Source: a virus (taxonomy: Duplodnaviria; Caudoviricetes). From it: a stretch of DNA of 64,000 nucleotides. The notes under the pieces were generated by a model. It saw only the letters and a program-made list of their open reading frames with translations, was not told where the DNA came from and searched no databases. The stretch is from IMG/VR virus record IMGVR_UViG_3300038345_000087, positions 1-64,000 of that record, one strand, 5' to 3'. The position numbers were made by a program, and so were the translations under genes. Of this stretch, positions 19,699 to 59,437 are shown one piece after another (position 1 is the first letter of the stretch; every line of letters starts with the position of its first letter).

Positions 19699-19727
19699 AA
19701 GGAACCCACTATTTCGGTGGGTTCCTT
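19699..19727. terminator. Terminator hairpin between convergent genes
   Basis: AAGGAACCCAC-tatttcg-GTGGGTTCCTT. Confidence 0.75.
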
Positions 19728-20752
19728 ATTCTTTTTGGTATTCGTCTTGTAGTCCATATTCTTCTAAATACCTTTGACACTTGAATCCTTTTCTTGGGGT
19801 GAAATCCGCGAAACTATGTGCCACGAAGTGCGCTTTTTTGTTCACCCATCCTGCCATGTCCTTTTGCCATTGAGGAATAATCTGCTTCGGATTGTTAGGG
19901 TCTCTGTAAGGCTGTGCGTAGGCATATACAGGACGGCCCTTGCCAGCATCCCTTACGGCTCGCATTTTAATCCACCAATGTTGTATGCGTTCATAGCTCT
20001 CTTTGAAGTCGCTTTTTCCTCCTATCATGGTATAAAGAAAATACTGTCCTGTGAAACCATATCGATTTATCATTTCCATCGCTCGTTCACATTCGATTAT
20101 CTGACCTTTGGTGTCACATCCGAAACGGATTCGGTTGTTGTCTAACCATTTCACTTTTGCCAGCAGCTTTGCAATCTCTTCAGTAACCAATCGTGCATCA
20201 AGTGCCTGGTTGAAATCTACTTTATAACCTCTCTGGATAATTTTCTCTAACTGTTCTATTGCATACGTTCCTGCTGCCAATATGTTATTATCCATCAGAA
20301 CTATTTTTCTGCGGCCTTCAATGGCTATTTCGTCAATATCCATATAAGGACGGATTGCACCTTCTTTTCGTGGTACCACACACCAAGGACATTTGTTTGG
20401 GCATCCCCGTGTGAGGAACCCGTAGGCTGTATCTTTAGGTACATTGGGATAGATAGAGTAGTCTGGTTGCAGCCTGTCTATTTCCTCTGGTAACTGTCTT
20501 TCCACATCGTAACCAGTTCCTCCTTTGATGATTACATCTGCATCATAAATACTTAAATCGTCTGGTGTGAAGTTGAACACTTTTGACATATACAAAATGT
20601 CATAGTGCTGCATGGGCGTAGCCCATTCAATTTGCCCCCCCCTGATTATGCCAGTATCGGGCAATTTTCGCCAATGCAAGATTGGGGTATATGGTTGCTC
20701 CCCATTTCTTTTTCTTGGCATGACCGTCAACATCAACTAAACCGATTTTCAT
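19726..20752 (-). CDS. Radical SAM protein, frameshifted at G8 tract (OFF; G7 restores frame)
   Basis: ATG at 20752 (TGATG overlap) gives MKIGLVDVDG..YPNLALAKIARYWHNQGG, then stop; the CPNKCPWC core follows in another frame after C8 at 20635-20642. Confidence 0.85.
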
Positions 20753-21246
20753 CATGGCTCATTCAGTACTACATATTTTCCTTCAATGCTACACTTCCTG
20801 AGTCGTGAATCACATTTTCTTCCCCATGCCACCAGACATGAGCCAAAGAACGGATGCCCGATTTCTCCTCCTGGACGCAAGAATTTCACTCGATGACGCA
20901 TGAAGAGCATACTGGCAGCGGTTGGAAAGATAACATCTTGAAAGAGAAGATTGTCCTGCCGATTCACCAATAAAGCAATACCTCGTCCATGCTTGGCCAT
21001 CTTCTCTACAAATTGTCGTAGTGGCGCACGACTGTAAGGCGGATTCATCCATACGACTGCCGTACTTGGCCAATCGTGTGCCAATCCGTCTTGCTCTTTG
21101 TTATAGCTGAGTGGAGCAATGGGGTAGGGTGGTTCCATCGGCGCACAAGGATCTAAGTCAAAAGGTCCTAATTCGTCGATTATCCATTTTGGCGTGTACC
21201 ATTCATCGCTTGATACGACCGCATTCTTCTGTTGCCTCGTGTCCAT
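20752..21246 (-). CDS. Phage-type DNA N6-adenine methyltransferase
   Basis: SDEWYTP, FDLDPCA, WMNPPYS. Confidence 0.85.
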   Translation of the reverse strand: MDTRQQKNAVVSSDEWYTPKWIIDELGPFDLDPCAPMEPPYPIAPLSYNKEQDGLAHDWPSTAVVWMNPPYSRAPLRQFVEKMAKHGRGIALLVNRQDNLLFQDVIFPTAASMLFMRHRVKFLRPGGEIGHPFFGSCLVAWGRKCDSRLRKCSIEGKYVVLNEP

Positions 21247-21357
21247 GTCTATAAGAGTAATCTTTTTCGTCCATCACCACGGCATTTATCCCTGGCATCG
21301 GTTCTCCGTCGCCAATGGGCATCGGTGTGAGTGGAATATAAACGGCTATTTTCTTTT

Positions 21358-21654
21358 TCATAATCCTTTTAGTTTTTTCATTTTCTCCATGAGCCTATCA
21401 GCTTGTATTTTTATAGATCTATGTATAATCTGACTGAATGGTTCAACATTGATTATGTTTTGTAACTCTGTCATCTGATCTTTGGTCATTATGATTTCTG
21501 GCCTTCGTTTTGGCAGACTGTTTCGTAGTAATGATTCACACTCTGCCATCGTTCTTGGCATGTCATTGATACTCGCTTTTGGAACATGAATGACAATAGG
21601 CTTATCGTCATCTTGATAAGTGAGCATTCCTGAAGGGAAACCTTTTTCGTCCAT
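21358..21654 (-). CDS. Hypothetical protein
   Basis: 98-aa ORF in operon. Confidence 0.5.
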   Translation of the reverse strand: MDEKGFPSGMLTYQDDDKPIVIHVPKASINDMPRTMAECESLLRNSLPKRRPEIIMTKDQMTELQNIINVEPFSQIIHRSIKIQADRLMEKMKKLKGL

Positions 21655-21656
21655 AT

Positions 21657-21909
21657 CTAAATATCATATTCTATAAAAACACATTGACTGACTTCTCCGG
21701 CCATAAGTGCAGATGCTATATTGCCATCCTCTTTGACTCTTGCGCGACGAAGTTCAGAACTTGGGTAGGCTGCATCGAATACTCCTCCAGAACAGCAAGC
21801 GATATACCCCGCTTCTGTTGCCTGTCTGACTAATAGCCACATTTGCCCCCCCCCTCGTTTCAAGGGCAAGGAATGGCCTCGTGGTGCGGAAATGTCGTAC
21901 TTTACTCAT
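21657..21909 (-). CDS. Stand-alone C5-MTase TRD-like mini-protein, frameshifted at G9 (OFF; G8 = ON)
   Basis: ATG 21909 MSKVRHF..ETRGG, tract 21846-21854, then QMWLLVRQATEAGYIAC..DAAYPSSELRRARV..SALMAGE..FIEYDI*. Confidence 0.7.
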
Positions 21910-21910
21910 T

Positions 21911-22513
21911 CTAATTGAACCATTTTACTACGGTGTCACCTTTCCATCCTTTTTCCCATACGAACCATGCGTAAGCTGTTGCACTTCCACTTATTTCATC
22001 AAACTTACCATTCATGGCACACAATAGCCGTGAACAACTGACCCATATTCGTTTCGGTGGCTGTGTGAGAAAGAGGTGTTTTCTACCTTTGCCTTCCAGA
22101 AATGTTAGTTTTAGGAACATGCACACCTTCTTCCCCGTAGGGATGATAGATAATGCTTTTTCCACGAACTCTTGAGCGTAGGCGTAAGGTGGATTGGTAA
22201 CGATATGCCCGTTCCATTCTTGGTTGTCGATGGAGAGGAAATCGGCCACTTCGCCAAAGCCACGATCGATAAGGTCGCGTGAGGTGACGAAATACCCCCC
22301 CCTCATAAGCACTTTGGAGATATGACCCTCTCCACATGCGGGTTCAAGGATAGGAGCATCAAAGTCCTCCAGCTTTATCAACCATTCTGCGGCTTTCGGC
22401 TCAGTGGCATAGTAGTCAGCCCATGCTCGATCATGGTCTGCATGGTTACTGGCTCCAAGAGTTTTGAAAACGCTTGCTTTACCACCTCTCCAGTCTTTCT
22501 TGCGGTCACTCAT
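21911..22513 (-). CDS. DNA adenine methyltransferase with in-frame G8 tract (ON)
   Basis: DYYATEP, ILEPACGEG, VTNPPY; C8 at 22295-22302 encodes RGG. Confidence 0.85.
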   Translation of the reverse strand: MSDRKKDWRGGKASVFKTLGASNHADHDRAWADYYATEPKAAEWLIKLEDFDAPILEPACGEGHISKVLMRGGYFVTSRDLIDRGFGEVADFLSIDNQEWNGHIVTNPPYAYAQEFVEKALSIIPTGKKVCMFLKLTFLEGKGRKHLFLTQPPKRIWVSCSRLLCAMNGKFDEISGSATAYAWFVWEKGWKGDTVVKWFN

Positions 22514-22869
22514 CGGTTATCTCCGTTTCCGTCTATGACTCCACGTTTTTTACGGTCGGCTAACTTCGCCAGATTGTCCTCGGTGATGCTTTCCAGCTTC
22601 CAACCCATGACATCACAGAGTCCAGCTAATTGCCAAAGGATGTCGCCGGCCTCCTTGCGTAATTCAGGGATATTGTCGGTATGTGCCTTTGCAGTCGGAT
22701 AGGTGAAGTCGTTGTTGTAGATGCTGCCATCTTCTTTGCGGATGCTCTTCGCTATCTTTCCTGCGAACTCTCCCACCTCTGCTACGAGGTTAAGCATCAT
22801 GTAGGAGAAGTTGTTACATGCTTCCATGCGCGTAGTCATGGCTTTTGCTTGATATTCGTTCAGTGTCAT
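22510..22869 (-). CDS. MazG-like nucleotide pyrophosphohydrolase
   Basis: MTLNEYQ, AEVGE, KEAGDILW, NLAKLADR motifs. Confidence 0.85.
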   Translation of the reverse strand: MTLNEYQAKAMTTRMEACNNFSYMMLNLVAEVGEFAGKIAKSIRKEDGSIYNNDFTYPTAKAHTDNIPELRKEAGDILWQLAGLCDVMGWKLESITEDNLAKLADRKKRGVIDGNGDNR

Positions 22870-22906
22870 AATGAATTTGTTTGTTATGAGGTTATGAAAA
22901 ATCACT

Positions 22907-23119
22907 TTATTTTCGGATATGGCTTTGTCTAAGTATTTCTTCAGTCTCGATTTTACAACCAGTTTCTTCGCTCATACTGTCGGCAAAGTAGGTAGCTGCT
23001 TTTAGCAACCTATTGTATAACTGTTCACGCTTCTTCGGGTTCATCAGGAATGCTAAATGTCCCCGCACCCCCTTAGCTCTTTTGCAGTGCGTAGTAGCGT
23101 TTTTCCTAAATTTCTTCAT
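22907..23119 (-). CDS. Hypothetical protein
   Basis: Short ORF in operon. Confidence 0.45.
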   Translation of the reverse strand: MKKFRKNATTHCKRAKGVRGHLAFLMNPKKREQLYNRLLKAATYFADSMSEETGCKIETEEILRQSHIRK

Positions 23120-23327
23120 GGGGTGCTTCTATCTTTTTAAGCATACCGGCATTCACGAGCTTTCTGATGAGGTTCTTTTCATTGAGTGCCATTCTGTAGA
23201 TGCACCCTTCTTTCATGTCAACTCGTCTTGGACTACCCAAATTGGTGATTTTTCCAGTCTGGATGTTAATCTCAAAAACGCATTGTCCTGGTCTGCGTCT
23301 GAGTCTTGCTACATGTTCTTGTTTCAT
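23106..23327 (-). CDS. Hypothetical protein
   Basis: Short ORF; CIYRMALNEKN. Confidence 0.55.
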   Translation of the reverse strand: MKQEHVARLRRRPGQCVFEINIQTGKITNLGSPRRVDMKEGCIYRMALNEKNLIRKLVNAGMLKKIEAPHEEI

Positions 23328-23365
23328 TGTTTAATGAATGTATGATTTAATGAATTGATGAATTT

Positions 23366-24467
23366 TCAATCTTCAAACTCTAACCAATACTGGAGAAATC
23401 GCTCTGCATACCATCGTTTATAGCTTTTGCCGCTTATCCACCAGTCGTATATATTCTCGGCTATTTCTTTTTCTTGCTCCTCGGTCAAGCCGTCAGACGA
23501 GGAGCTACCAGAAAACCCGCGTTTCCCTTTCCAATGTGTCGGGTCTGGGTGTAGGATGTACCCGTAATCGTCGATAGTCTTTTGGGGATAACGGTTTGAA
23601 GTTGGTTCCAATACCGTACCACAGGGTTCCCGTTGGTAGGAATTTTGAGAAATACCCCCCCCATGTCGTATAGCGATAATGGCTTTTATCCAGTTGCGCT
23701 TTACATGGGGCCATCGTTCATTCTCTATGCGCTTTTGGCGTGGGCTGCTCATCGGGCACCCTATGCAGCCTATACGATGAAAGCCCTGGTCGTAGAGTTC
23801 GCAGTGTGGAACTCTTACCACGTCATTCAGGAACTTCCACACATCACGCTCCGTCCAGTTGATTATTGGTGATATCAGCAGGCTCTCTTTGCCGCTGATG
23901 CAGCCAATGGTGGTTTCCTCGGTGGCATTGGTGATATTGATGCCATTTGCCTTGCGGTATTCATCCAGACCATCTAAGGTTCCGCTGTATTTTCGGCTGT
24001 CTATTTCCACCTCATTACGTTTCTTGCGTCGGCTGCTCTCCTGCCTTCTGATGCCGATGAGTGTCACCTTGCCGGCTCCTGCATGTTCTTTGTATTCCTC
24101 ACAGCACCAACGTACTTTCTTCGTTGGTAGTAGTTGCTTGCGCTCTGCCACATGATAGATGCTGTCATTGGGCTTTATCAGTTCTACTTCTGGATAGTGC
24201 TTCTTGACGAAGCGGATTACCTCTGGCGGATCTACTGAAGTAAGATTCATGTGTCCCTCGAAGCGTACACCGGCCAACTGTGCAATATGGTAAAGGGTCT
24301 GACTGTCTTTGCCTCCACTGAAAGCAAGAAAATACCCCCCCCCTATTATCGTAGGCCAGAGCCAGCTTCTCGGCTCTCTGCAAAAGACTGATGGAATACT
24401 CCATTTTCTTTTGCAGCCCCTCACTTGCTCTTGCATACGCTTCCTCTATGGTTATGTCTATGTTCAT
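23366..24467 (-). CDS. PAPS-reductase family protein, frameshifted at G9 (OFF; G8 = ON); second G8 tract is in frame
   Basis: ATG 24467 MNIDITIEEA..YDNRGG, C9 at 24335-24343, then YFLAFSGGKDS, RWCC, GIRRQES, RIGCIGC; C8 at 23655-23662. Confidence 0.85.
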
Positions 24468-24469
24468 TG

Positions 24470-25244
24470 TTACTCGAAGTTTAATCTGCCTTGCCTTCCT
24501 GCTTCTTTGATGCGTTCTACGGCAATGTTGTAGTATTGGGTATCTTTTTCTACACCGATGTATCTTCTTCCTTCCTCGATGGCGGCCACGCATGTCGTTC
24601 CGCTCCCCATCGCATTATCAAGAATTAGCCCCCCCCTGCTCGCTATACGTGCGAATGAGGTGGCGAAGTAGATTTACCGGCTTTTGACTTGGATGCAGCC
24701 ATCCTCCCTTGTGGTGTTCCTTGGGGTAGGATAGGATGCTGCCAGGGTACTTCATTCGGCTCGCCACAGTCTCTGTCTTATTGAAAGTTCCGTAGCAGCT
24801 ATTCTTCACCTCTTTTTTTAGTCGGCCACGTGAATGGCTTGGTTCTCCAACTTTCATCTGAGGGTGATAGATGGGTAGCTGTTTATAGAACACGCAGATG
24901 TCCTCATGCTGTCTCAATGGCATCCGTTTCGCATTCAGAAAACCAGAACAGCGGGCCTTATCCCAAATGAGATTGTACTTCCACATTTTTGGATTACTCA
25001 TCATCAGGTGTGCTGTAAACATTCCTTGTGCGAAAAGAAGAATGGCTCCTCGTGGTTTAATGATTCGCCTATACTGTTCCCATAATGGTTCAAGTGGTAT
25101 CACACAATCCCATTGTGCGGACTTGTTGCTTTTATTGAGTACGCCGTATGGCAAATCGCAGATGATAGCGTCGATGCTTTCGTCTGCAATGTCTGTCATT
25201 ACGTCTAAACAGTCACCAAGGTAGATGTTATTTGGCTCTATCAT
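24470..25244 (-). CDS. Beta-class N4/N6 DNA methyltransferase, frameshifted at G8 (OFF; G7 = ON)
   Basis: GDCL, DLPYG, HPSQKP; the SAM-binding LILDNAMGSGTT and YIGVEKD lie past C8 at 24629-24636 in another frame, ending 24470. Confidence 0.88.
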
Positions 25245-39679: not shown

Positions 39680-39775
39680 ATGCCTGATAGTGCGCCCGCT
39701 GGTTCATCTGGCGGGTGCCTTTCAGTCTCATTGGATTCTTCACCACCATTAGTGCTGATTGAATATGAATTGTAA
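39680..39775 (+). CDS. Mini-ORF 0 of the IEY array (31 aa, probably degenerate)
   Basis: MPDSAPAGSSGGCLSVSLDSSPPLVLIEYEL*. Confidence 0.45.
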   Translation: MPDSAPAGSSGGCLSVSLDSSPPLVLIEYEL

Positions 39776-40076
39776 ACTGGCAAAATTCTATGAATACGGC
39801 TCTACCTCATATTATGTGACAGGTGATGGTAGGGTGTTGAGTACACGGAATCCTGACCTCCCAATGGATTCTTGGCACGAGATAGCATCTTTCAACGGTA
39901 AGGGCTATCGTCGTGTGCGCATCCAGCGAAAGAACTTCAAGGTGCATCGTTTGGTGGCTGAAGCCTTTGTGCCAAACCCCGACAATCTCCCTCATGTTCT
40001 TCATATAGATGGCGACCGCTGTAATAATCATTATACAAATCTCGAATGGTCCGCGTCCCAATCCAATCACCAATAA
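39765..40076 (+). CDS. HNH endonuclease (NUMOD4/HNH_3-like)
   Basis: GYRRVRI..KVHRLVAEAFVPNP..HIDGDRCNNHYTNLEW. Confidence 0.85.
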   Translation: MNCKLAKFYEYGSTSYYVTGDGRVLSTRNPDLPMDSWHEIASFNGKGYRRVRIQRKNFKVHRLVAEAFVPNPDNLPHVLHIDGDRCNNHYTNLEWSASQSNHQ

Positions 40077-40207
40077 TCCTTGGCTACTATTCTCCTTCGC
40101 AGAATGGTGTTGTGGTCTCTCCATACGGTATCGCGTTATGCCTTGCAGGGGGGGGTAAAGGACATGATACGGACAAACCTAAAATTCTCATAGAGTATGA
40201 TGTGTAA
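40046..40207 (+). CDS. TRD-like mini-protein 1 (53 aa), G8 in frame (ON)
   Basis: ..SPSQNGVVVSPYGIALCLAGGGKGHDTDKPKILIEYDV*; G8 at 40148-40155. Confidence 0.7.
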   Translation: MVRVPIQSPIILGYYSPSQNGVVVSPYGIALCLAGGGKGHDTDKPKILIEYDV

Positions 40208-40346
40208 TGGTGTGGTCATTCTGGTGCTCGGTTCACTCCAGCCGCACGCAGCTGTGGTCAACGTAGTAGGGGGGGGTAATTTCATCCCTTGCTTAGGAAC
40301 AACAGATTTCGGACTTCCAAAATTGGTGATAGAATATGATGTTTAG
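40197..40346 (+). CDS. TRD-like mini-protein 2 (49 aa), G8 in frame (ON)
   Basis: ..GSLQPHAAVVNVVGGGNFIPCLGTTDFGLPKLVIEYDV*; G8 at 40269-40276. Confidence 0.7.
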   Translation: MMCNGVVILVLGSLQPHAAVVNVVGGGNFIPCLGTTDFGLPKLVIEYDV

Positions 40347-40526
40347 TATAACGAATATAGGCGCATTCCGCGTAACGAGGGGGGGGGGCAAATCTGTCCT
40401 ATCAATGTCACGCTTGATGGCTGTGCTGCTACCATCACTACACGTTATGGCGCAATGGACTATTCCAACATCATCAGTTTCGGCCATTTTCCTATGACGG
40501 CTTGTTTATTGGAGTATGATTTATAA
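40336..40526 (+). CDS. TRD-like mini-protein 3, G10 out of frame (OFF; G8 or G11 = ON)
   Basis: MMFSITNIGAFRVTRGG, G10 at 40379-40388, then QICPINVTLDGCAATITTRYGAMDYSNIISFGHFPMTACLLEYDL*. Confidence 0.7.
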
Positions 40527-40687
40527 GATAATAGGTTGGTCCCGCGATGCAGTAGGCAGGGTGGTATGTTATCACTTAAAGGACATCTGCAACACACTTA
40601 CCACCTTTGTAGGGGGGTAAATTTAAGGACTCAAAAACAGACCTCGGCAATACTACGCCTTATGTCTTTATAGAATATGAATTGTAA
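40516..40687 (+). CDS. TRD-like mini-protein 4, G6 out of frame (OFF; G5 or G8 = ON)
   Basis: MIYKIIGWSRD..ICNTLTTFVGG stop at 40618; the shifted frame gives KFKDSKTDLGNTTPYVFIEYEL*. Confidence 0.7.
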
Positions 40688-40940
40688 AAAAAGTATGTTG
40701 ATAAAATCTATTAGATATATAGGATTCCTGAGACCTGACGTGAGTTGTGGCACTGGTTATTCAGAACCCGATAAGTTCCATGTGGTTTATGATACAGGGT
40801 TGGAAACTGATGTGTGGGTTGATATTTGGAATCTTCCAGAGGAATGTGTACGTAGTGCTTTTTTAGAGGATTGTATGATGCTTTTCATTCGCTACCCAAT
40901 AATCTTGATGAAGCATTTGAAATGTATAAGCAAGCAATAA
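40677..40940 (+). CDS. Hypothetical protein inside the array
   Basis: 87 aa; starts MNCK with the same junction sequence as the HNH gene. Confidence 0.5.
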   Translation: MNCKKSMLIKSIRYIGFLRPDVSCGTGYSEPDKFHVVYDTGLETDVWVDIWNLPEECVRSAFLEDCMMLFIRYPIILMKHLKCISKQ

Positions 40941-41001
40941 TTCCAACAGGACGTTGCCCACATTTTTGGCTTAATGAACGTAAAAAACAATAATATATAA
41001 T

Positions 41002-42252
41002 ATGATAGCTAAAATTTATCCAGACAATCATCCAGATTTGGCGGGCAAGCGTGACCCGTCACATCCAGTCCGTTACTTCGATATCCGTAAACTGACAGAA
41101 GGTGAATGCCTCCGTTTGATGGATGTTCCTGAACCTGACATCATCAAACTTTGTAATGCAACAAAGGGCAAGGCGGGGCGCATCAAAGAAAACGAACCCG
41201 CTTATGGTGAAGCAGGACATGGGAAAGGCTCTCCTGTGCTTTCTCGTTCTGCTATCTATAAACTTGCAGGAAACAGTATTGTTGTTTCATGCTTACGTCA
41301 TATCTTCAAGAATATCTATTTGACAGAGGATGATCCTAATGACGCTTTTGAATTGTTCCCTGAACCGACATTCCGTGCCCCTATTCCTTCTACCATTCGT
41401 CTTGTTACACTTTGCTCAGGTTATGACTCACAAGCCATCGCCCTTCAGCAAGTGGTAGATGAGATAAACCAGGGGGGGCAAATCAACGGTTCCGTATGTT
41501 GCGATGGTATCGCAACCCAATTAGATTTGCTTGCTTGGGCTGAATACGACCCAGATCGTCCGAAAATACCACTTGAAAGACAACCCGCCGTAGTTGCACA
41601 TAATATCCTTTTTCCCCAATATGCGGATCGTAACCTCGGCGATATGACAAAGATTGATTGGCCTTCCGTCTATGAGGAGTGGAAGGCGAAAGGAATCTCC
41701 GAAATCGATATTCTTACTTATTCTACGCCATGCCAAAGTATTTCTCAGGCTAGTAAAAGAGCCGGCATAAAGAAAGGTTCTGGCACCCGATCTTCTATAC
41801 TATGGTACACAGAGAATGCCATCCGTACACTCCGACCTAAATTTCTTCTTCAAGAAAATGTCCGCGCTCTGGTGAATGAGGTGAACATTGATGATTTCCG
41901 TGAGTGGCAACAAGTCTGTACTGATTGTGGATATGACAACTATTGGGCCATACTGAATGCAAAGGATTTTGGCGTACCGCAAAACCGTGAGCGTGTGTTC
42001 ATGCTTTCCGTCAGAAAGGATTTGAACCTACCCATATATCGTTTTCCTAAACCTTTCCGCCTCTTGAAGTGTATTGCAGACATCCTTGATGAGGATGTAC
42101 CAGAGAGTTATTTCTTGAAGCCGGATAGTGTTATCAAGTTCTTTCAGACCAATGAAGCAGATAAGAATGCGGCCATCTGTTATGCTTATACAGACCACAA
42201 ACTTTCTAATGAGGAAATCGCACGCATTCGTAAAGAGAATGGGGTGGGGTAA
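41002..42252 (+). CDS. Circularly permuted C5-cytosine DNA methyltransferase core without TRD; in-frame G7 tract
   Basis: Motif order IX (IRKLTEGECLRLMD), X (YKLAGNSIVV), I (TLCSGYDSQ), IV (STPCQ), VI (QENV), VII (LNAKDFG), VIII (PQNRERVF); G7 at 41472-41478. Confidence 0.9.
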   Translation: MIAKIYPDNHPDLAGKRDPSHPVRYFDIRKLTEGECLRLMDVPEPDIIKLCNATKGKAGRIKENEPAYGEAGHGKGSPVLSRSAIYKLAGNSIVVSCLRHIFKNIYLTEDDPNDAFELFPEPTFRAPIPSTIRLVTLCSGYDSQAIALQQVVDEINQGGQINGSVCCDGIATQLDLLAWAEYDPDRPKIPLERQPAVVAHNILFPQYADRNLGDMTKIDWPSVYEEWKAKGISEIDILTYSTPCQSISQASKRAGIKKGSGTRSSILWYTENAIRTLRPKFLLQENVRALVNEVNIDDFREWQQVCTDCGYDNYWAILNAKDFGVPQNRERVFMLSVRKDLNLPIYRFPKPFRLLKCIADILDEDVPESYFLKPDSVIKFFQTNEADKNAAICYAYTDHKLSNEEIARIRKENGVG

Positions 42253-42553
42253 TGAAAAAGATGCTGATAAAAGATACCGAACCGTCCGAAGATATGGCTC
42301 GCATCCGTATTTCGGCAAGCCGTGGCAGGGGGGGCAATCTATGACTTACCTCTATGACCGTTCGCCAAAAGATGATACTGCACCTGTTCGTGTGGCTTCA
42401 TCTGTTAATCGTGACCTTGATGACCTTTCTTTTCGTGGTGCTCATGCGACAAGGAACTTCCATCAAGTCATAGAACTTGGCTCTTCTCGGTTCACCAACA
42501 CTATCACTTCTGTTCTAAAAGACAATCTCGTATGGATAGAGTGTTTTCCGTAA
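42252..42553 (+). CDS. TRD-like mini-protein 5, split at G7 (G8 fuses both parts; the downstream half also has its own ATG at 42341)
   Basis: MKKML..RISASRGRGGNL* then MTYLY..RVASSVNRD..FTNTITSVLKDNLVWIECFP*; G7 at 42328-42334. Confidence 0.65.
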
Positions 42554-42675
42554 GTTTGATTCGTTATCCACATGGTAAGTTTCGTGGTGGTCATTATCAT
42601 GTTCATGCTTTTCCTCCATTAACGACCTCTTGCTTCCAAAACAATAACTTTCTACTTATTGAATATGATTCCTAA
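42532..42675 (+). CDS. TRD-like mini-protein 6 (47 aa, no G tract)
   Basis: ..IRYPHGKFRGGHYHVHAFPPLTTSCFQNNNFLLIEYDS*. Confidence 0.7.
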   Translation: MDRVFSVSLIRYPHGKFRGGHYHVHAFPPLTTSCFQNNNFLLIEYDS

Positions 42676-42901
42676 TAGCCGCCCTGCATGTTGCGATTCT
42701 ATCGAAACTCTCTCATTGACCATTACTACCTCCGCACCTCCTAAACGTATTCCAGGGGGGGCACTTCTTCCTGTAAATACAACAGCCGACGGGCTGGCTT
42801 GCACTCTCAACACTCGTTACGAGGCTATGGCTCTTCCGCTCGACATCCTTTCCCTGGCTCATTACCCCAAGACAGTTATTTTGATAGAGTGGTTCCTATA
42901 A
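42665..42901 (+). CDS. TRD-like mini-protein 7, G7 in frame (ON)
   Basis: ..PGGALLPVNTTADGLACTLNTRYEAM..HYPKTVILIEWFL*; paralog of unit 3; G7 at 42755-42761. Confidence 0.7.
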   Translation: MIPNSRPACCDSIETLSLTITTSAPPKRIPGGALLPVNTTADGLACTLNTRYEAMALPLDILSLAHYPKTVILIEWFL

Positions 42902-43014
42902 TGACCATCAACTCTTCACAAGATGGCATCGTGGTTTCTCCTTGGGGCATTTCTCCTACACACACAGCCGGTCATGGTAATATGCCCAAGGTAATAGTAG
43001 AATACGACTTGTAA
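42901..43014 (+). CDS. TRD-like mini-protein 8 (37 aa)
   Basis: MTINSSQDGIVVSPWGISPTHTAGHGNMPKVIVEYDL*; paralog of unit 1. Confidence 0.7.
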   Translation: MTINSSQDGIVVSPWGISPTHTAGHGNMPKVIVEYDL

Positions 43015-43025
43015 AGCCACTGTTT

Positions 43026-43052
43026 CCGATGGATCTCCATCGGGTCTTTTTT
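43026..43052 (+). terminator. Intrinsic terminator closing the replication/methylation operon
   Basis: CCGATGGA-TC-TCCATCGG followed by a T tract. Confidence 0.7.
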
Positions 43053-43169
43053 GTCGTTTTTGTATGCAGCATGGTTTGCCCATGCTGTTTTTCATTTGTT
43101 CCGTTCCCCTCCTCTTCCCTTTGTATCTTTGCCTTGTAAATAATGTAAAATCCTAAATAAATCAAAATT

Positions 43170-44309
43170 ATGCTTATCTCCTCCGTTGAAGAACTGCGTC
43201 TCTACGCTCCTGCCAATGCCATCGATCATATCGAAACACTGGCTGGTTTTCTGGATAGTTCTGAACACGATTTCCTTGCTGAGAAATTGGGTCATCCTCT
43301 TCACGCTTCTCTCACGGAATACTATCAGAACCTACTCAACTCTGAAGATGGCCTTGCTGATTATATCCAATCCATCACCAACGGTATAGAAATGCCTCCT
43401 TACGCACGCCTCTTGACTGTGGCACAGCGCATCGTGGCTTTTGATGCTCTTGGTCGTGCTATTGACATGCAAGCCATCAGTGTGAATGGTGCTGGCATCA
43501 ATATCTCCACGGCTGATGACTACGCAAAGGCTGATCGTGAAGCGGTGTCAGCTTACAAAAGTACGTGCATCAAAGAGGCACATGCGGCTGTCAATCGCCT
43601 TTTGGTCCTTCTCGAAGAGTGGACGAAGGATGCGGTAGAAGATACGGATCCTGTGCCAGACGGCTCTTCTTCGGGTTCCGAGGAAGAGGAAGAACAGACC
43701 ACTCCAGAACAGGAGAAATCAGAAATCGCCCGTCTTTGGCGTTCTTCTCGATTTTTCTACCTTGCTGCTGGTCTCATTATTCCGTCGGCAATAGTCCTTC
43801 AAGACTATCTCAATATCTATGAGTCTCGTGAAAAATTCATCACTTTGCTTCCTGAACTTCGTACCATTCAGGAGGACATCATAGCACCCATTATTGGAGA
43901 GGATTTTATGGACTATCTTATCGCGTTCTCGCGTGATCCGAAACCTTCTTTAGAAGCCTCCGTGCAAGAAGGTGATTCCTCTGGTCTTTCAGAAGCAGAC
44001 GTGCGCCTTCTTTCTCGCATCCTTCATCGACTTCGCAAGGCTGTAGCACGTCACTTGGAATCGCGTACCATGCAGATGAAGCTCACAGACCCGCGTCGCA
44101 ATGCGGCCCATAATGAGGCGGTACAGTTGACAACGGATCTTGCAGACTATATCGCCGCTCATCAGAGCGACCTACCAACGGATGCCATCACTGCTTTCAC
44201 CACCTCCCCATTGTATAAACCTACGGATGTGACCACGGAGGAAGAAGTACCCTCTTTTGAGAACAATGCTCCCGATTCTGTCATTTTCGTTACTCCTGCT
44301 CTGTCCTAA
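43170..44309 (+). CDS. Putative virion structural protein (head-tail adaptor-like)
   Basis: First gene of a module after TATCTTTG, upstream of tail genes; function inferred from position. Confidence 0.5.
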   Translation: MLISSVEELRLYAPANAIDHIETLAGFLDSSEHDFLAEKLGHPLHASLTEYYQNLLNSEDGLADYIQSITNGIEMPPYARLLTVAQRIVAFDALGRAIDMQAISVNGAGINISTADDYAKADREAVSAYKSTCIKEAHAAVNRLLVLLEEWTKDAVEDTDPVPDGSSSGSEEEEEQTTPEQEKSEIARLWRSSRFFYLAAGLIIPSAIVLQDYLNIYESREKFITLLPELRTIQEDIIAPIIGEDFMDYLIAFSRDPKPSLEASVQEGDSSGLSEADVRLLSRILHRLRKAVARHLESRTMQMKLTDPRRNAAHNEAVQLTTDLADYIAAHQSDLPTDAITAFTTSPLYKPTDVTTEEEVPSFENNAPDSVIFVTPALS

Positions 44310-44322
44310 ATCATAAATCAAT

Positions 44323-46863
44323 ATGACTCAAGCCCGTCCAGCCGATTATTGGTTTTCCAATTCGGCTCTATATATCCAACTGAATGCCGCTGGCGACCCT
44401 AATTACATCCATGCCAACTGTTCGTCTGGCTCGGCTGTGTTGTGCTTTATGCGCGGCATCAATGGTTTGGGCTATGATAACGGACACAACTATCGGCGAT
44501 GGTCATTGATAGCGTCGCCGACGGTGTTCCACGATAATGCCGTTCGTTATGTCTATATTGCCATCCCGAAAAGTGACGCAGTTGATGTGCCGGCACAAGT
44601 GGTGTTCCCTTCGGAGCTGATAGACCTATACGGCTGCAACGAAGGTGGTACGCAAATTGGTTCAACGGATTACTTCTACATCTTCACTCAGGGCATCATT
44701 TCTCCTTCAGAAGTGAATGGTGTTCGCCAAAACCGCACATGGCAGCAGAATGTGGATTGTGGCCAGTTGGCATCGGATGAAGCGATGGCGAATGGAGGCT
44801 CTGATTCATGGTGGGAATGGAACAGTGTCACGGACATGGTGAAGTTCCTGAAGGTGATTTCAGAGGCGACTTTCGATAAACTGACAGCTGCTTGGGCTTC
44901 CATCCGGCAACTTGTGTTGAACGGACACATTATCAATGGTGTTGCAGACCCAGAGACGGCTCAGGATGCCAACGCAGATGACAAGGTGGTGACTCCGGCA
45001 TACGCTCAGACACAGTACCTATCTCGTACACATGATGACGCTGCGGCTGGTGATATCACCTTCAACAACTCCATCATGGTCAAAGGTGAGACCATACTGA
45101 AGCGTGCTGTCACAATCGGAGAATATGAGAAGGACATCCAAGTAGGTATAGGTTCACGCACGGGCGCAAAAATTCTTCCAGATGGTACAATCATCGCCCG
45201 TAATCTCGAATTATCCGAAAGCCTCCAAGTGCCGACTATCAAATACAACTCCATTGAGGTGTTGGCTGGCACACGATGGGATTCTGCCGGTAAGGGACGC
45301 ATCAAGGAGATTATAGCAGTCGATGACAATGCTCATACATGTCAGTTTGTGCTCGATCTCAACGATGGTGAACCTGGTGAGTTTATTGTCAATGACATCC
45401 TTCGTGGCTTCTGGCATAACATGGACGGAACGAAGAATGCACAGAGTAATTCTGATGACCGCCGTGGAAATATCACACGTGCGGGGTTCCAGTCCATCTA
45501 TTGCCGTGTCATCGCCGTGGCGAATGTTGTTGAACGTACCACCGCTGACGCGACTATCTATATTGCCCAGGACAATCAGTACCTCGCTCAGGAGGGAGAT
45601 AAGATATTGGCGAATGGACTTGTGACTGTGCAGATGCGTCAGTACAATAATGGTTCCGATCCTGCAACGTGGTCGCCAACTCCTGAACAGTGGGCTGTCC
45701 TGTCTGTTTCCGGCTTCTTTGGCATCGACCATCCAGAACGTCAGAAGTTCTTTATCTACACCACGTCGTATATGGCTCGATTTGAGGGTGTCAACACGTG
45801 GGAATGGGAGGAACACTGCTTCATGGGAGGTTGGGGCGACTTGACTGGTTTTGCCATGATTCAGGAGGACGAACATGGTAATATCTCACGCAAGGAGTTT
45901 AATGGTGAAGGCTTCGTAACCAAGGATGCACATATATATGGTATTCTGGAACAGTTCACCCGTTTCTCTGATCGCATCAACATACTTCTTTCCCGTCCAG
46001 ATGGAACAATAGCGGATGGAGAGAATATGCGTGCTGACTTTGTTCTCGCAGACGTGGAGGGCAATATCATTTCGTCGGGCTACCGTCTTGACATCACCCG
46101 ACAATCTGGTAATGCTCAGGCTGATGCTGCATGGAATACGGCGATGGCCACTCGATATCCTGATGGCATACCATCGGCTCTGTATTTCCAGTTCTCCGAC
46201 GTTCCCGAAAATGGTGCGGTTTATATTGTGGCGGCTTCTCGTCAGGTGCCAGATGGTACTTCTTATACAACCTATACGACATCGGCATCCTTTGTTCTTT
46301 CACGTGCCTACGCTCAGGAGGTTTTCATGGGTGAATGGAGTCCTTTGACCACCTATACACGCAATGCTCGTACATATCCGACTGTGACCTATGGAGGTTG
46401 TAAGTGGTGGCTCGCTGTTTCAACATCCACAAACGACGAACCGCATCCGCTTTCTACGAAGTGGAAGATGGTTTATGGCATTAACGACCTCGAAATTCGC
46501 TTCTATAATGAGGCGGGCAATCGGATCACCTCTGCTGCTGCCTATCCTGGCTCTGTCAACATCTATCTGGAACCACGCCTTTTGTGTGGCCTCTATGACA
46601 TCACGGAATATCTGACGGACTCCGATTGGTCGTGGGATCGTTATACGGGCAACTATGGCGAACAGACGGACACAAGAACTCCAGCTGATAAGCAGTCAGA
46701 CCAGGGATGGCGCAATGCTCATTGGCCGTCACAACCAACCACACGCATTCTCCGTATCACCAACACTGACATGCCTCCTACATGGGGGTCTGGTGTAATG
46801 GTAAACTTCATCATAACTTGTAATTATGATGGTCTGATTATTTCTAATTCTGTCACCTTCTAA
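44323..46863 (+). CDS. Putative tail protein
   Basis: 846 aa; YLSRTHDDAAAGDITF and LQVPTIKYN motifs typical of Bacteroidota phage tail proteins; next to TMP. Confidence 0.65.
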   Translation: MTQARPADYWFSNSALYIQLNAAGDPNYIHANCSSGSAVLCFMRGINGLGYDNGHNYRRWSLIASPTVFHDNAVRYVYIAIPKSDAVDVPAQVVFPSELIDLYGCNEGGTQIGSTDYFYIFTQGIISPSEVNGVRQNRTWQQNVDCGQLASDEAMANGGSDSWWEWNSVTDMVKFLKVISEATFDKLTAAWASIRQLVLNGHIINGVADPETAQDANADDKVVTPAYAQTQYLSRTHDDAAAGDITFNNSIMVKGETILKRAVTIGEYEKDIQVGIGSRTGAKILPDGTIIARNLELSESLQVPTIKYNSIEVLAGTRWDSAGKGRIKEIIAVDDNAHTCQFVLDLNDGEPGEFIVNDILRGFWHNMDGTKNAQSNSDDRRGNITRAGFQSIYCRVIAVANVVERTTADATIYIAQDNQYLAQEGDKILANGLVTVQMRQYNNGSDPATWSPTPEQWAVLSVSGFFGIDHPERQKFFIYTTSYMARFEGVNTWEWEEHCFMGGWGDLTGFAMIQEDEHGNISRKEFNGEGFVTKDAHIYGILEQFTRFSDRINILLSRPDGTIADGENMRADFVLADVEGNIISSGYRLDITRQSGNAQADAAWNTAMATRYPDGIPSALYFQFSDVPENGAVYIVAASRQVPDGTSYTTYTTSASFVLSRAYAQEVFMGEWSPLTTYTRNARTYPTVTYGGCKWWLAVSTSTNDEPHPLSTKWKMVYGINDLEIRFYNEAGNRITSAAAYPGSVNIYLEPRLLCGLYDITEYLTDSDWSWDRYTGNYGEQTDTRTPADKQSDQGWRNAHWPSQPTTRILRITNTDMPPTWGSGVMVNFIITCNYDGLIISNSVTF

Positions 46864-46875
46864 CATCCCGATAAT

Positions 46876-49800
46876 ATGGATAAAAAGACCGAAGTTGTCA
46901 TCACATGTAATTCCAAGCAACCTGTCGCCGCTGTGCGTGCGATGGAAACGGAATTGAAAAAACTGCAAGGCACTTACCAGCAGCTCGTACAGGCTGGCAA
47001 GGCTGGAACAGAACGTGCTAAGACGATGGCGCACGAGATCAAGGAACTCTCTATTGCTATCAAAGAGGGAAAGGCGAACATGGATAAAATCGTGTCCGTT
47101 ACGAATAACCTTTCCCAATCTTCACTCTCTCAGTTGCAGCGTGCCCTTCGTCAGGTGAAGAAGGAAATGTCGCGTGTAAGTACGGATAGCCCGAAACTGG
47201 ATGATTTGCGTATGAAGTATAAGGCTATCACGGACCAGATTAAGATTCTGAGTGGTGAAATGCTGAATATAAAGAAGCATATTGGCAACCTCTCTGGAGT
47301 GACGGATTCTTGGCTTCAGAAAGCCGTCCAGCAACAGAAAGCCCTGGTGCAACAGACACGTCAGGGAACATCTGAGTATAACAAGCAGATGAGCGTGCTG
47401 TCTCAGCTCTCGACTGAACAGGCACGTCGCGCTGTATCTACCATATCATCGGGTACTGCCAGTGCAGAACAACTACGTTCTGCCCGTGCTGCCCTCGTTT
47501 CTCATCGTGATATGATAGGCTCTGGTGGTATTCAAGTACAGGGCAATCAGGCAACGGAAATAGCTAAAATCAATGAGGAACTGAAGAAGGCTGATGCACA
47601 ACTTGATACGATTGCTGGCAAGGAACAGAAATTGGTGTATTCAACACAGGAAATTGCAGATAAGGCGAATCAGATTATCATGGATCCCAAAAAGTTCACA
47701 CCAAAGGAGATTGAAACGGCTCTGACTAATGTGAACAATAAATTGAAGGAAATTCCACTCAATGACCCGTTCCGAAAGCAGCTAAAACAGTCTGCAACAC
47801 AGTTGAAGGCCATCCTCGATGGCGTGGATAAGGAACTTATCGACATCAAAAACTTGCTCCAACCGCAAAACCTCAAGAAAGCCTCTCTTGAACAGTTGAA
47901 GAATGCGGCTACTCAGTTGGAGAAGGAAATGGCGAAACTCAACCGTGATACACAAGAGTATATCAATAAGAAAAGCCAACTGGCTACCATTCGCGGGGAG
48001 ATAGATAAGGCTACGGGTTCTGTGCATAAACAATCGTCAGCATGGCAGACTACACTTCGCAATATGTCGGCATACTTTGGTGCCTTCCAACTGTTCTCTA
48101 TGGCTATCCAGAAGGTTCAGGCGTTTTTCCGTCTTAACCTCAAATTCTCGGATCAGTTGGCCGACATTCGTAAGGTGTCCGGCCTCGCTATGCAGGACAT
48201 CAATAACCTTGCTAATTCTCTTGCAAAACTTGATACTCGCACTACCATTCAGGAACTTAACGAGATTGCTTATGCGGGTGCCAAATTGGGTATGGGTAAG
48301 TATGGCACCGCCGGATTGGAGCAATTCGTTCGTGCGGCTAACCAGGTGAATGTGGCACTGAAAGAGGACTTGGGACAGGATGCACTCACGGCTCTCTCTA
48401 AGATTACGGAGGTCATGGGACTTATCCCGAAGATGGGCGTGGAGAAATCCATGCTGGCTGTAGGTTCTGCCATGTTCCAGTTGTCTGCCACATCTACGGC
48501 GACATCGAACAATATCGTAGAGTTCTCAAAACGTCTCACGGGTATGGCTCGTACAGCCGGTATCACCACGGATCAGCTGCTTGCACTTGGTTCTGCTTCT
48601 GATGCTATGTACCTCATGCCCGAAGTCGCCAGTACTGCATTTAATAAACTTATCACCTCTCTTCAGACGAAGCACAACCTCATTGAACAAGAACTTCAGA
48701 TTGAACCTGGTACCATCAACAACCTCTATTCTGCTGGCAAGACAATGGATGCCATCGTTCTCATCCTCGAAAAGATGAAGGCGAAGGGTAACATGAATGC
48801 CCTGCAAGGTGTGTTCAAAGACCTCGGTTCTGAAGGTGCTCGTCTCGTCAATGTCATGGTGACGATGAGCAAGAATGTAGATATGCTCAAAGATCACCTC
48901 GCTACATCTGAGGAAGCATTCTCAGAGGCGACGGCTGTCACTCAAGAGTATGCTATACAGCAAGAAACGGCTAATGCTCTGATGGAGCGTGCTTCAAATA
49001 TATGGGAAAAATCTTTTATCAATCCGAAGGGCGTAGATAATGTAAAGGAGTTAGCGCAACAATGGTATAACTTAACAAGGACTCTGACAGAATCTACATT
49101 TTTTATGGCACAGGCTAAGGCTGCTATTTGGCTTCTTATTAGTAGCATTAAAATTTTGATAGCATTACTTCCTGTGTTGATAGAGTTTTTCTTGTTTAGA
49201 GGAGCTTATGCTGCTATTATGGCCGTGGTTCGTGGTTTTGTCGCTCTTCGTACAGCAATTCAGGCGGCTACTGTGGCACAACATGGTTTGAATGCTGCTC
49301 AGAAGGCAAATCTATTTGGATTGATAGCGACCCTTATTGCTGCTGCTGTTAGTTGGTTTATCACGTATCGCGAAAAAGCAGAGGATGCAGCCGAAGCACA
49401 GCAAACCGTAAATCATGCTCTTGCTGATGCTCAAGCAGAGTATATGAAAACTAAAAAGAAACTTGACGATTATGTTAAGGCTCTTGATGATGCTAATATA
49501 TCTGAGGACACCCGTCAGAGATTGCTTCGTTCCTTTAATAAGGATTATAGGATTTATCTGGATAAGTTGGGTATAGAAGTCAATAGCGTAAATGATTTGA
49601 AAACGGCTTATGCCAAGTTGAATGATGAGATAAAGAAAAAGGCGTATTACGAACTGCGTGAAAGAACGCTCCAATCATACGTTGGTGATGCACAGACGGA
49701 ACAGGCTAACGCCATGATAGAGTTCCAGAAGGTGATGAAAAAGTATGGACTGGATGTTAATGCTGATTATGTGGTGAACAATCAGCATTTGGGTATGGTT

Positions 49801-52602: not shown

Positions 52603-52742
52603 TTCGCAAGGAGTCGCCAAAGGCTCCCACATTGGGTTCTTTTCAATAAAAGTTCGGTATGGTTTTCCCATACCGTTCTTTTTTTTGTTCCGTTTACTTC
52701 CCCTGTTTCCCCTATCTTTGCTTTTGAAATTTGAAATCTATT

Positions 52743-53870
52743 ATGGCCGTACATATCAATCTTCACCTTCCGACTTCCTATAACCGCTGTTCTCTACCAG
52801 AACTGCGTGCTATCGCTGCTGTTATGAGTGACTGTGCCCTTCGTGCTTCCCGTTTCCATCCGTTTGACATGATGGAAGTGAAGGTGGCCGTGTTTCTCAG
52901 ACTGACAAACCTCGAAATAGTAGAACCGCTTAATCCACGTGTTCCTGTTGAGGAACAGTACTACGTTGTGCGCACGCTTCCCTATACTGTCAATGATGAA
53001 GAAAGAAGGTGGTTCCGTGTGTTTCGATGGCATCGCAACTTAAAAGCGTGGTGCCGTCGCCATATCCTCGGACATGATGATTCCTTTTCGCTGTATCTCT
53101 GGCAAATACACTCCTGGTTATCTTCATCTAAGAGTCGTGTGACGGGAAAGGTTACGCCTGGCCTTTTGGACTGGCTGGATGCCGACAACCCAGATTCGTT
53201 ACTTATATTCCCGTTATCTTCCATTCGTCGAAGTCACCGTGCCAGATGGTTTCCCTTCGGGTCTAAAGTTACTTTCGCTGGCCCCGCACCCCTGATGGAT
53301 GGATTTAGTTGGCAACGCTATCGCTTTGCTCAGGACTATATGCAGAATTATATCAACGCATCCAATCGCCTTCTCCAGTTGCAAAAGATGGGTAATCGCG
53401 CTTCTGCTGCCGACATCCTCCGCGCCTCCAAGAATCTTGACCTCGCAAAGGCTTTGTTCCTGGCTACCATTTTTTGTCGTCGCATCACTTATGTGGATGA
53501 AGAAACGGGGCGTACTAAGACGGATTATCGCTACCAATCTAACCAACATATAGACAATGCGCCATATTTCCGAAACTTCCCTGATACGGACTGGCAACTG
53601 GTCTTGTTGTGGTGGCAGGGTATGATGCACTACTTACAAAAGACGTACCCTAAAGTTTTTAAGAAACAAAAGGTATCGAAGGATCAGAAGGCGGCTAATC
53701 CGCTTGAACTCTATACTCGCACAACGGCCACAATGGAGAAATACATATCTGCCACGGCTTCTGAGGTGGATCACGAACCTTATACGACAATTCTTCAACA
53801 TATCGAAGATATCATCAAGAATAACGAGGAAATGGAACGCATCAATGCTTCCATGAAACGTAAATCATAA
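52743..53870 (+). CDS. Hypothetical phage protein
   Basis: ORF from ATG 52743. Confidence 0.65.
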   Translation: MAVHINLHLPTSYNRCSLPELRAIAAVMSDCALRASRFHPFDMMEVKVAVFLRLTNLEIVEPLNPRVPVEEQYYVVRTLPYTVNDEERRWFRVFRWHRNLKAWCRRHILGHDDSFSLYLWQIHSWLSSSKSRVTGKVTPGLLDWLDADNPDSLLIFPLSSIRRSHRARWFPFGSKVTFAGPAPLMDGFSWQRYRFAQDYMQNYINASNRLLQLQKMGNRASAADILRASKNLDLAKALFLATIFCRRITYVDEETGRTKTDYRYQSNQHIDNAPYFRNFPDTDWQLVLLWWQGMMHYLQKTYPKVFKKQKVSKDQKAANPLELYTRTTATMEKYISATASEVDHEPYTTILQHIEDIIKNNEEMERINASMKRKS

Positions 53871-53898
53871 ATTCATCAAATCATCAATTCATTAAATT

Positions 53899-54171
53899 AT
53901 GAATACAGAAAAACTTTATTCTCGCGTCCTCGAAATTCTTATGGCGCGTTATGACTCTCCATCCATGCCTCCGGCTTCGGAGATAACGATTGACAGTTCT
54001 CTTTCTGAGGATTTGGGTATGGAATCGCTCGACATCGTAGATTTCATCATCGGCTGTGAGACGGCTTTCGACATCAAATTGGATATGGCCGACGCGAAGA
54101 ATGTTCATACCATTCGTGATCTTATTGACTTTATTCTGGAAGTGAAGCCTTCGTTATGCAACCAACTTTAA
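53899..54171 (+). CDS. Acyl carrier protein
   Basis: LSEDLGMESLDIVDFII..E.AFDIKL..TIRDL; phosphopantetheine-accepting Ser present. Confidence 0.85.
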   Translation: MNTEKLYSRVLEILMARYDSPSMPPASEITIDSSLSEDLGMESLDIVDFIIGCETAFDIKLDMADAKNVHTIRDLIDFILEVKPSLCNQL

Positions 54172-55526: not shown

Positions 55527-55752
55527 GGTAGTGCGCATATATGGTGTTTCTCTGTCTTGTATGCCGCCGTAACGCGGCGGCTGGTATCTTTTTTCAATCT
55601 TCTTATTCGTCGGATTTCATTCGGAGGCTGCCGTCAGGCACGCCTCCGCCAAAGGTATCTAAACCCACATCGCGCCAGCCTAAACATAAGAGACGCGCTT
55701 TTCTTTCTCTTGTATAGAGAAAGGCGCATAATACCCCAATTTAATTCGGGTA

Positions 55753-55784
55753 CAAAATTACAATTATTTTTTCGCCCCGCCAAA
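55753..55784 (-). promoter_or_regulatory. Minus-strand Bacteroidota promoter facing a hairpin-rich non-coding segment
   Basis: Reverse complement reads TTTG-N20-TAATTTTG. Confidence 0.65.
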
Positions 55785-56921: not shown

Positions 56922-56942
56922 TATACATATATATAATAAGGT

Positions 56943-57953: not shown

Positions 57954-57973
57954 TTATAACTCTCAATTTATAT

Positions 57974-58858: not shown

Positions 58859-58877
58859 CTTTTAATTCAATAAACAA

Positions 58878-59432: not shown

Positions 59433-59437
59433 TAGAA

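Follow-up and report, generated by a model that had tools for sequence, protein, structure and literature searches.

The virus record IMGVR_UViG_3300038345_000087 comprises 106,650 bp with a G+C content of 46.5%, and the window analyzed here is its first 64 kb. Between 39.7 and 43.0 kb, this window carries a DNA-methylation locus in which a single C5 cytosine methyltransferase core gene is surrounded by nine small open reading frames (ORFs) of 31-100 amino acids (aa), most of which end in a conserved I/L-E-Y/W-D/E-type motif (Table 1). The start codon of the next unit usually lies inside or adjoins the last codons of the preceding one, and relatives show the same layout. A sequence-only reading of the stretch had described seven coding-strand poly-G runs at this locus, in units 1 to 4, the core, unit 5 and unit 7 (G8, G8, G10, G6, G7, G7 and G7, respectively), and we recovered all seven at the coordinates and lengths it gave.

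Frame states were assigned by homology and by comparison with intact alleles in other strains, a gene being called ON when its run is in frame and OFF when it is out of frame. Units 1, 2 and 7 and the core are ON and units 3 and 4 are OFF, in agreement with the sequence-only reading. Calling states by the longest ORF spanning each run was rejected: it conflicted with the homology calls at three of the seven runs and is unreliable because overlapping frames are often open by chance. Unit 5 required a correction, since it is indeed split at G7 but is not simply OFF, as its two parts form a pair of ATGA-coupled ORFs. The leader of this pair is a paralog (a duplicated 5′ half) of the short-form units, and a run of G8 fuses leader and recognition ORF into one frame, as in L112 (100 aa) and P0001.

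Table 1. Predicted genes and homopolymer runs of the methylase array and of other run-bearing modification genes (positions in the window, which are also genome positions)
Feature	Position	Strand	Run and state	Basis or remark
First array unit, mini-ORF of 31 aa, ends LIEYEL	39680..39775	+	no G run	start overlaps end of clamp gene
HNH endonuclease ORF inside the array	39759..40076	+		Pfam HNH_3, E = 4e-9
Unit 1, 53 aa, ends IEYDV	40046..40207	+	G8, 40148-40155; ON at G8	reading, homology
Unit 2, 49 aa, ends IEYDV	40197..40346	+	G8, 40269-40276; ON at G8	reading
Unit 3, split by its run	40336..40526	+	G10, 40379-40388; OFF; in frame at G8 or G11	
Unit 4, split by its run	40516..40687	+	G6, 40612-40617; OFF; in frame at G5 or G8	
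ORF between unit 4 and core, function unassigned	40677..40993	+		frameshifted here by 1-nt deletion at 40864
C5 cytosine methyltransferase core, circularly permuted, without recognition domain	41002..42252	+	G7, 41472-41478; ON at G7	Pfam PF00145, E = 8e-41
Unit 5 leader ORF, 30 aa	42252..42344	+	G7, 42328-42334	TGA stop overlaps next ATG; gene calls in L104
Unit 5 recognition ORF, 70 aa, ends VWIECFP	42341..42553	+		profile match to C5 methyltransferase variable region
Unit 6, 47 aa, ends LIEYDS	42532..42675	+	no run of 6 or more	
Unit 7, 78 aa, ends LIEWFL	42665..42901	+	G7, 42755-42761; ON at G7	
Unit 8, 37 aa, ends VEYDL	42901..43014	+	no run	
Second block of run-bearing modification genes	19726..25244	-		ORF reading, Pfam
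Radical SAM gene	20635 (run)	-	G8	
Remote recognition-like mini-gene, ends FIEYDI	21657..21909	-	G9, 21846-21854; OFF; in frame at G8	
N6-methylase-like gene	22295 (run)	-	G8	
PAPS-reductase-like gene	23655 and 24335 (runs)	-	two runs: G8 at 23655, G9 at 24335	
N6/N4 methylase gene	24629 (run)	-	G8	
Methyltransferase-domain ORF (locus L114)	68171-68769, beyond the window		coding-strand C7 at 68646	Pfam Methyltransf_11

The core contains motifs I, IV, VI, VIII, IX and X of C5 methyltransferases, read as LCSGYDS, TPCQS, QENV, QNRER, RKLTEGECLRLM and GNSIVV, in the order IX-X-I-II-IV-VI-VIII; motif I is the SAM-binding motif, and motif IV (PCQ) holds the catalytic Cys. We describe it as circularly permuted because motifs IX and X come before motif I. 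In an alignment with M.HhaI, residues 65-201 of that enzyme (motifs IV-VIII) correspond to core residues 228-367 and HhaI motif X to core residues 81-105, and only about 50 core residues lie beyond the HhaI-aligned part. A recognition domain in the same chain between motifs VIII and IX is thus missing from the core, and separate ORFs are found instead. The G run of the core lies between motifs I and II.

Profile comparisons link these separate ORFs to the variable region of C5 methyltransferases. When 1.84 billion proteins were searched with a profile built from ten sequences of the unit-5 type, 360 matched at E <= 1e-3, and nine of the ten long matches were PF00145 enzymes in which the matched segment lay between motif VIII and motif IX. 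P0016 carries two such recognition domains in tandem and P0013 carries five, followed by motifs IX-X; one of the five is homologous to the remote unit (21.7 kb). The unsplit methylase of L031, a gut phage, has the same segment just before motif IX (BLASTP with unit 5, E = 8e-4). For unit types other than the unit-5 and remote types, we obtained weaker pairwise matches or motif resemblance only. Pfam gave no matches on the mini-ORFs, a profile of the unit-3/7 type gave none against PDB sequences, and a word-based search for longer relatives of unit 7 found none. Judged by where these matches fall, we take the mini-ORFs to be true target-recognition domains of C5 methyltransferases.

The runs are strongly over-represented and strongly clustered. 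Genome-wide, we counted 15 G/C runs of 7 or more, compared with approximately 1-4 expected under null models of order-1 to order-3 composition (~0.3-2.5 runs per base), which bears out the enrichment that the sequence-only reading had proposed to examine. The distribution of run lengths is bimodal, with G5 ×11, G6 ×2, G7 ×4, G8 ×2 and G10 ×1 among G runs and 24 at C5, none at C6 and eight at C7-9 among C runs. Six runs of 7 or more fall within the 3.3-kb methylase locus (P = 3.7e-6), and 12 of the 15 fall within this locus plus the block at 19.7-25.2 kb (P = 3.8e-11). Altogether, methylase genes, recognition genes and their operon neighbours, such as the radical SAM and PAPS-reductase-like genes, hold 13 of the 15 runs, with almost none in ~90 kb of other genes. 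The genes that follow the array had been said to show no such tracts, and no G/C run of 6 or more occurs from 42762 to 60434 (17.7 kb).

Codon usage indicates at which level these runs are maintained. GGG is the rarest glycine codon of the genome (7.8%), and GGG-GGG pairs occur eight times among 109 Gly-Gly pairs (0.7 expected), all eight in run-bearing genes. In run-less relatives (L001-L005), the Gly-Gly-Gly of the unit 1 ortholog is encoded by the mixed codons GGT GGA GGT. This combination of mixed codons in run-less orthologs and general GGG rarity therefore identifies the homopolymer as a nucleotide-level feature rather than a by-product of protein sequence or codon bias.

To follow run lengths between strains, we compared the window with 20 further near-identical strains (97-99.9% to the window) from separate samples, obtained by one metagenome scan and two exact-protein look-ups. 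All strain counts include the window and exclude duplicates, giving 21 strains in all. An independent Logan assembly (SRR1725612) matches the window at 100% identity, probably represents its source sample and has the same run lengths, so that these lengths are not peculiar to one assembler; look-ups with the window's own proteins returned only SRR1725612 contigs, all 100% identical to the window. A Megablast search of the locus against deposited phage genomes gave no match. More distantly, a scan of viral contigs yielded 79 loci with related cores, of which about 30 carry 1-14 runs around the core; these run-bearing loci are mostly of 45-52% G+C, and many come from rumen-type samples.

Comparison with these relatives, which the sequence-only reading had named as a check, revealed that every run varies in length across the 21 strains while its flanks are conserved. 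In unit 1, the run was G7 in five, G8 in nine, G9 in three and G10 in one of 18 strains (9/18 in frame); in unit 2, G6 in two, G7 in eight and G8 in seven of 17 (7/17 in frame). Twelve strains not selected on unit 3 carried G7 (×7), G8 (×3), G9 (×1) or G10 (×1) in that unit, three of the 12 thus being in frame, and in G8 strains unit 3 is an intact 62-aa ORF with identical flanking residues, a protein indexed in 34 collection blocks. The unit 4 run was distributed as G6 ×1, G7 ×10, G8 ×5, G9 ×2 and G10 ×1 among 19 strains (5/19 in frame), with an intact 57-aa ORF in L110, L112 and L113. Downstream of the core, the unit 5 run was G7 in five strains and G8 in one, and the unit 7 run G7 in four and G8 in two (OFF: L109 and L111), leaving unit 7 in frame in 4/6. 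The combinations of ON and OFF in units 1-4 differ from strain to strain, consistent with the independent toggling that had been predicted. The core tract is variable as well: among 11 strains sampled regardless of the core, nine carry G7 and two carry G8, which places the core out of frame (L080 and L115).

This variation is largely confined to the runs. In the closest pair (L106 and L110), which differs by 11 substitutions in 11,243 nt, all three comparable runs nevertheless differ in length; L106 and L107 differ at 4/4 runs, L007 and L100 at 6/7, and L013 and L014 (96.5% identical) at 8/13, with nearly all small indels between the latter falling in runs. Isolated frameshifting indels outside runs are nearly absent from 176 kb of aligned sequence, and these alignments show no comparable variation at their A/T homopolymers (6-8 nt). 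The scatter of run states among close strains suggests recurrent change. Orthologous units keep the run at the same site with lengths in differing frame classes even where the cores are only 45-50% identical, and each unit circulates as both in-frame and out-of-frame alleles whose flanking protein sequences are identical. The runs thus share two features with contingency loci: each is a repeat within coding sequence in which a one-unit change shifts the frame, and between strains its length changes far faster than the genomic background, with 2-5 length classes per run in the 21 strains.

The coding sequence downstream of OFF runs does not appear to be degenerating. The C-terminal parts that follow runs found out of frame in every sampled genome retain 75-88% aa identity with synonymous sites saturated. 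Nonsynonymous divergence (dN) in the same parts is 0.1-0.3, and its ratio to synonymous divergence (dS) is 0.07-0.25 where computable. The C-terminal part of the remote mini-gene is likewise 76% identical to its L014 ortholog, with dS saturated. These parts are under purifying selection and are therefore not decaying pseudogenes.

Switching of the core may have evolved repeatedly. The core of other lineages has a poly-C run located within or directly behind motif IX; four contigs (L007, L008, L011 and L014) have this run in frame, whereas three (L013, L009 and L100) have it out of frame. Core switches occur at three different sites, and a switchable core therefore arose at least three times; this pattern points to an independent origin of the core switch in several lineages.

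Taken together, these data support the sequence-only reading at the level of DNA switching. We consider it likely that the G runs are contingency loci made of hypermutable simple-sequence repeats, which switch the recognition modules, the core and other modification enzymes. Slippage during replication of the phage DNA would add or remove one G and so shift the frame, and the frame would determine if translation reaches the conserved C-terminal part of a recognition mini-protein; the catalytic core and several other modification enzymes would be gated in the same way. Since each recognition module owns a run, the modules would switch independently, while the run of the single core would switch all C5 methylation together, so that the role of master switch proposed for it is plausible. 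One burst could then release genomes with differing sets of active specificities.

A broader proposal, on which our judgement is evenly balanced, is that these viruses represent a family of Prevotellaceae phages with a plug-in methylase, in which one core would be served in trans by a library of peptides, each gated by a hypermutable G run, with additional runs on the core and on other modification enzymes. Such a phage would dedicate an entire set of contingency loci to its epigenome and give up to 2^N methylation types per burst. Under the favoured contingency reading as well, free recognition peptides would dock on the permuted, recognition-less core and set its target sequence, and the resulting mixed methylation patterns may hedge between hosts with methylation-sensitive and hosts with methylation-dependent restriction enzymes. 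Hosts of this phage are probably Prevotellaceae (Prevotella-type, gut or rumen), to judge from related sequences: the closest isolate-linked contig belongs to Prevotella sp. MGM1, and several related contigs occur within Prevotellaceae metagenome-assembled genomes.

Several observations weigh against contingency switching as the whole explanation. All run lengths are assembly consensus values, so that mixtures within a population are invisible. The in-frame fraction of modules, approximately 26-50%, is near the 1/3 expected under drift without selection. Some module types were out of frame in all genomes sampled (the CRFSDR type in 6/6 and the remote type in 4/4), and these could reflect low-level slippage in expression rather than DNA switching. 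At G7, the unit 5 run, with its ATGA-coupled ORF pair, may tune expression instead of gating it. The sequence that follows the runs is also unexpectedly constrained. Among 132 non-redundant runs, the +1 base is a pyrimidine in 93%, the +2 base is A in 84% and the +3/+4 bases are A or T in ~80%, often giving CAAAT or TATTT, compared with a background of 33-42% after short G runs; the 5′ base is A in 58%. This 3′ flank is kept across unrelated genes and in all three frames (for example, at 40156-40160, 41479-41483 and, on the minus strand, 20630-20634), and a flank conserved to this degree is beyond what simple slippage explains.

Two further ideas about local sequence around the runs were rejected. 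As a general rule, the G run does not act as a mimic of a ribosome-binding site, an ATG occurring within 6 nt after the run in 16.5% of cases against a background of 15.7%; the idea is applicable only to unit 5 and a few others. A stop codon placed directly after the run, which would shorten out-of-frame products, occurs at only 20% of runs.

Three alternatives to contingency switching were weighed against this evidence. If slippage were instead programmed into expression, the RNA polymerase or ribosome would slip on the run, OFF alleles would yield some full-length product, low-level expression would extend to every module and differences in DNA length would be largely neutral. Such a scheme would accommodate the module types that every sampled genome carries out of frame but that remain under purifying selection, as well as the fact that G7 is the commonest state where G8 is in frame, and small amounts of a methylase are all that is needed. 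Yet the shift required differs between runs of one genome, with +1 needed at some and -1 or +2 at the rest, and in-frame and out-of-frame alleles of one module coexist among strains with identical flanking protein. The fast change of run length would also be left unexplained. Transcriptional slippage occurs much less readily on G/C runs of 7-8 than on long A/T runs, which further counts against this account, and programmed ribosomal frameshifting fits poorly with a shift direction that varies between runs and with in-frame alleles that are common. We therefore rate slippage in expression as unlikely to be the general explanation.

It is similarly improbable that the runs are non-adaptive mutational hot spots, by-products of polymerase or repair bias through which modules drift in and out of frame without benefit. 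The in-frame fraction near 1/3 is what such drift predicts, and cassette content does turn over between near-identical strains. However, hot spots of this kind would hardly be gathered in modification genes (13 of 15 runs) to the near exclusion of ~90 kb of other genes, built from the rarest glycine codon, retained at orthologous sites between cores of only 45-50% identity, acquired by the core at three sites, and followed by coding sequence under purifying selection. A still less probable alternative, which we consider very unlikely, is a sequencing or assembly artefact, in which miscalled homopolymers would create both the length differences and the OFF states. Some sequencing platforms do make errors at homopolymers, but run lengths agree at 10/10 runs compared between two assemblies that probably derive from one sample, and dozens of independent assemblies, produced with various assemblers, retain the runs. 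The ON and the OFF state of a module are each found again in many samples, as illustrated by the in-frame unit 3 protein in its 34 blocks, and the aligned A/T homopolymers (6-8 nt) show no such variation. Contingency switching at the DNA level thus remains our favoured reading.

A full-text literature search returned no account of mini-gene arrays for recognition in which each gene has a G switch of its own, although parts of the arrangement have known counterparts. Repeat-switched methylases are standard in bacteria (phasevarions; mod and hsd genes of Haemophilus, Neisseria, Helicobacter and Campylobacter). The present locus resembles them in that a homopolymer in a methylase gene shifts the frame reversibly, and several such genes produce combinatorial states. 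Unlike phasevarions, however, the system is viral, is known here from sequence alone, and places its switches mostly on separate recognition-domain genes of 37-100 aa and not on the enzyme; its likely role would be escape from restriction and not regulation of a gene set.

The modular architecture recalls the multispecific C5 methyltransferases of Bacillus phages (M.SPRI, M.Phi3TI, M.Rho11sI and M.H2I), in which one core serves several short recognition domains with a separate target for each, all of them within one polypeptide between motifs VIII and IX and none of them switchable. Proteins related to the present modules in which 2-5 domains are fused in tandem also exist (P0016 and P0013). 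In contrast to the Bacillus phage enzymes, each domain here is its own stop-ended ORF, the core is permuted and domain-less, and most domains carry a G run; rather than forming tandem domains in one polypeptide of the SPR/phi3T type, each next start lies inside the preceding IEYD codons. The two-subunit M.AquI and the circularly permuted M.BssHII illustrate that C5 methylases tolerate a split near the variable region and the order IX-X-I...VIII, but they differ from the present system in having neither free-standing recognition peptides nor repeat switches.

Among phages, Sorensen et al. 2021 describe Campylobacter phages (Fletchervirus) with G7-G11 runs of variable length that create phenotypic virion subpopulations; those runs lie in receptor-binding protein genes and alter adsorption, whereas the runs described here lie in DNA-modification genes. 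In T2, an A-run contingency locus in agt flips DNA modification and trades off two host defences, TgvAB and McrA/BC (Gomez, Barrick and Waters, bioRxiv 10.1101/2025.10.21.683753). That system consists of one A run in one glucosyltransferase gene, unlike the at least 13 G runs found here over core, modules and other modification genes. Bordetella phages have a homopolymeric G stretch in an adenine methylase ORF, with frameshift control of expression proposed (2004 work, as cited in PMC4791379); only one run in one ordinary methylase gene is involved there, in contrast to the multiple runs of the present locus.

Beyond the array, six more coding-strand G runs occur in minus-strand genes at 20635-24636, within the second block of run-bearing modification genes (Table 1). 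The methyltransferase-domain ORF at 68171-68769 likely has its C-terminus continued in another frame. An in-frame G7 run at 60435-60441, with the same type of 3′ flank, lies in an ORF at 60208-61071 whose N-terminus is Cys/His zinc-finger-like, and a C7 run at 1053-1059 near the genome start lies in sequence that looks non-coding or contains only a very short ORF. Approximately 110 bp are repeated at both ends of the 106,650-bp genome.

Further differences between strains and relatives were observed in and around the array. The HNH ORF begins with a start codon lying within the LIEYEL codons that close the first mini-ORF, and at least one strain lacks this ORF, as L106 has no HNH gene call. 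The ORF separating unit 4 from the core is 99 aa long in every other strain compared, owing to one additional C behind the T6 run (window 40859-40865); the Logan assembly of SRR1725612 shares the window's 1-nt deletion at 40864. Over window positions 42254-42764, L080, L081, L105-L107, L110 and L113 carry other downstream cassettes despite a 99%-identical core. In these strains homology stops at the end of the core gene and restarts directly behind the unit 7 G run, where L080 and L081 have a breakpoint of cassette replacement. Because homology resumes there, runs may coincide with recombination boundaries between module halves.

Two relatives show other arrangements of the methylase itself. 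In L018, an isolate-assembly contig, the core gene is frameshifted near motif IV (~4590-4650) without any homopolymer run. The run-less relative L021 (3944-6159) encodes motifs I-VIII, then six stop-separated recognition mini-ORFs, and finally a further recognition domain that is fused to motifs IX-X. With its natural motif order and mini-ORFs, L021 therefore demonstrates that a split array exists without G switches and without permutation.

Phage contingency loci have been described only recently, in receptor-binding genes and in T2 agt. In the virus studied here, more than 12 switches are gathered on the genes for DNA modification, and specificity modules encoded apart from the enzyme bear most of them. 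If these modules do act in trans, they would represent a new way of building a multispecific methyltransferase and would offer a compact natural system for the docking of recognition domains on a C5 methylase core. As the array is shorter than 3 kb, one long read could report both methylation and switch states of the same molecule. Modules acting in trans would further imply that phage populations of the gut and rumen are epigenetically heterogeneous by design, which would bear on host-range prediction, on the metagenomic linking of phages to hosts by methylation, and on the arms race of methylation-sensitive against methylation-dependent restriction.

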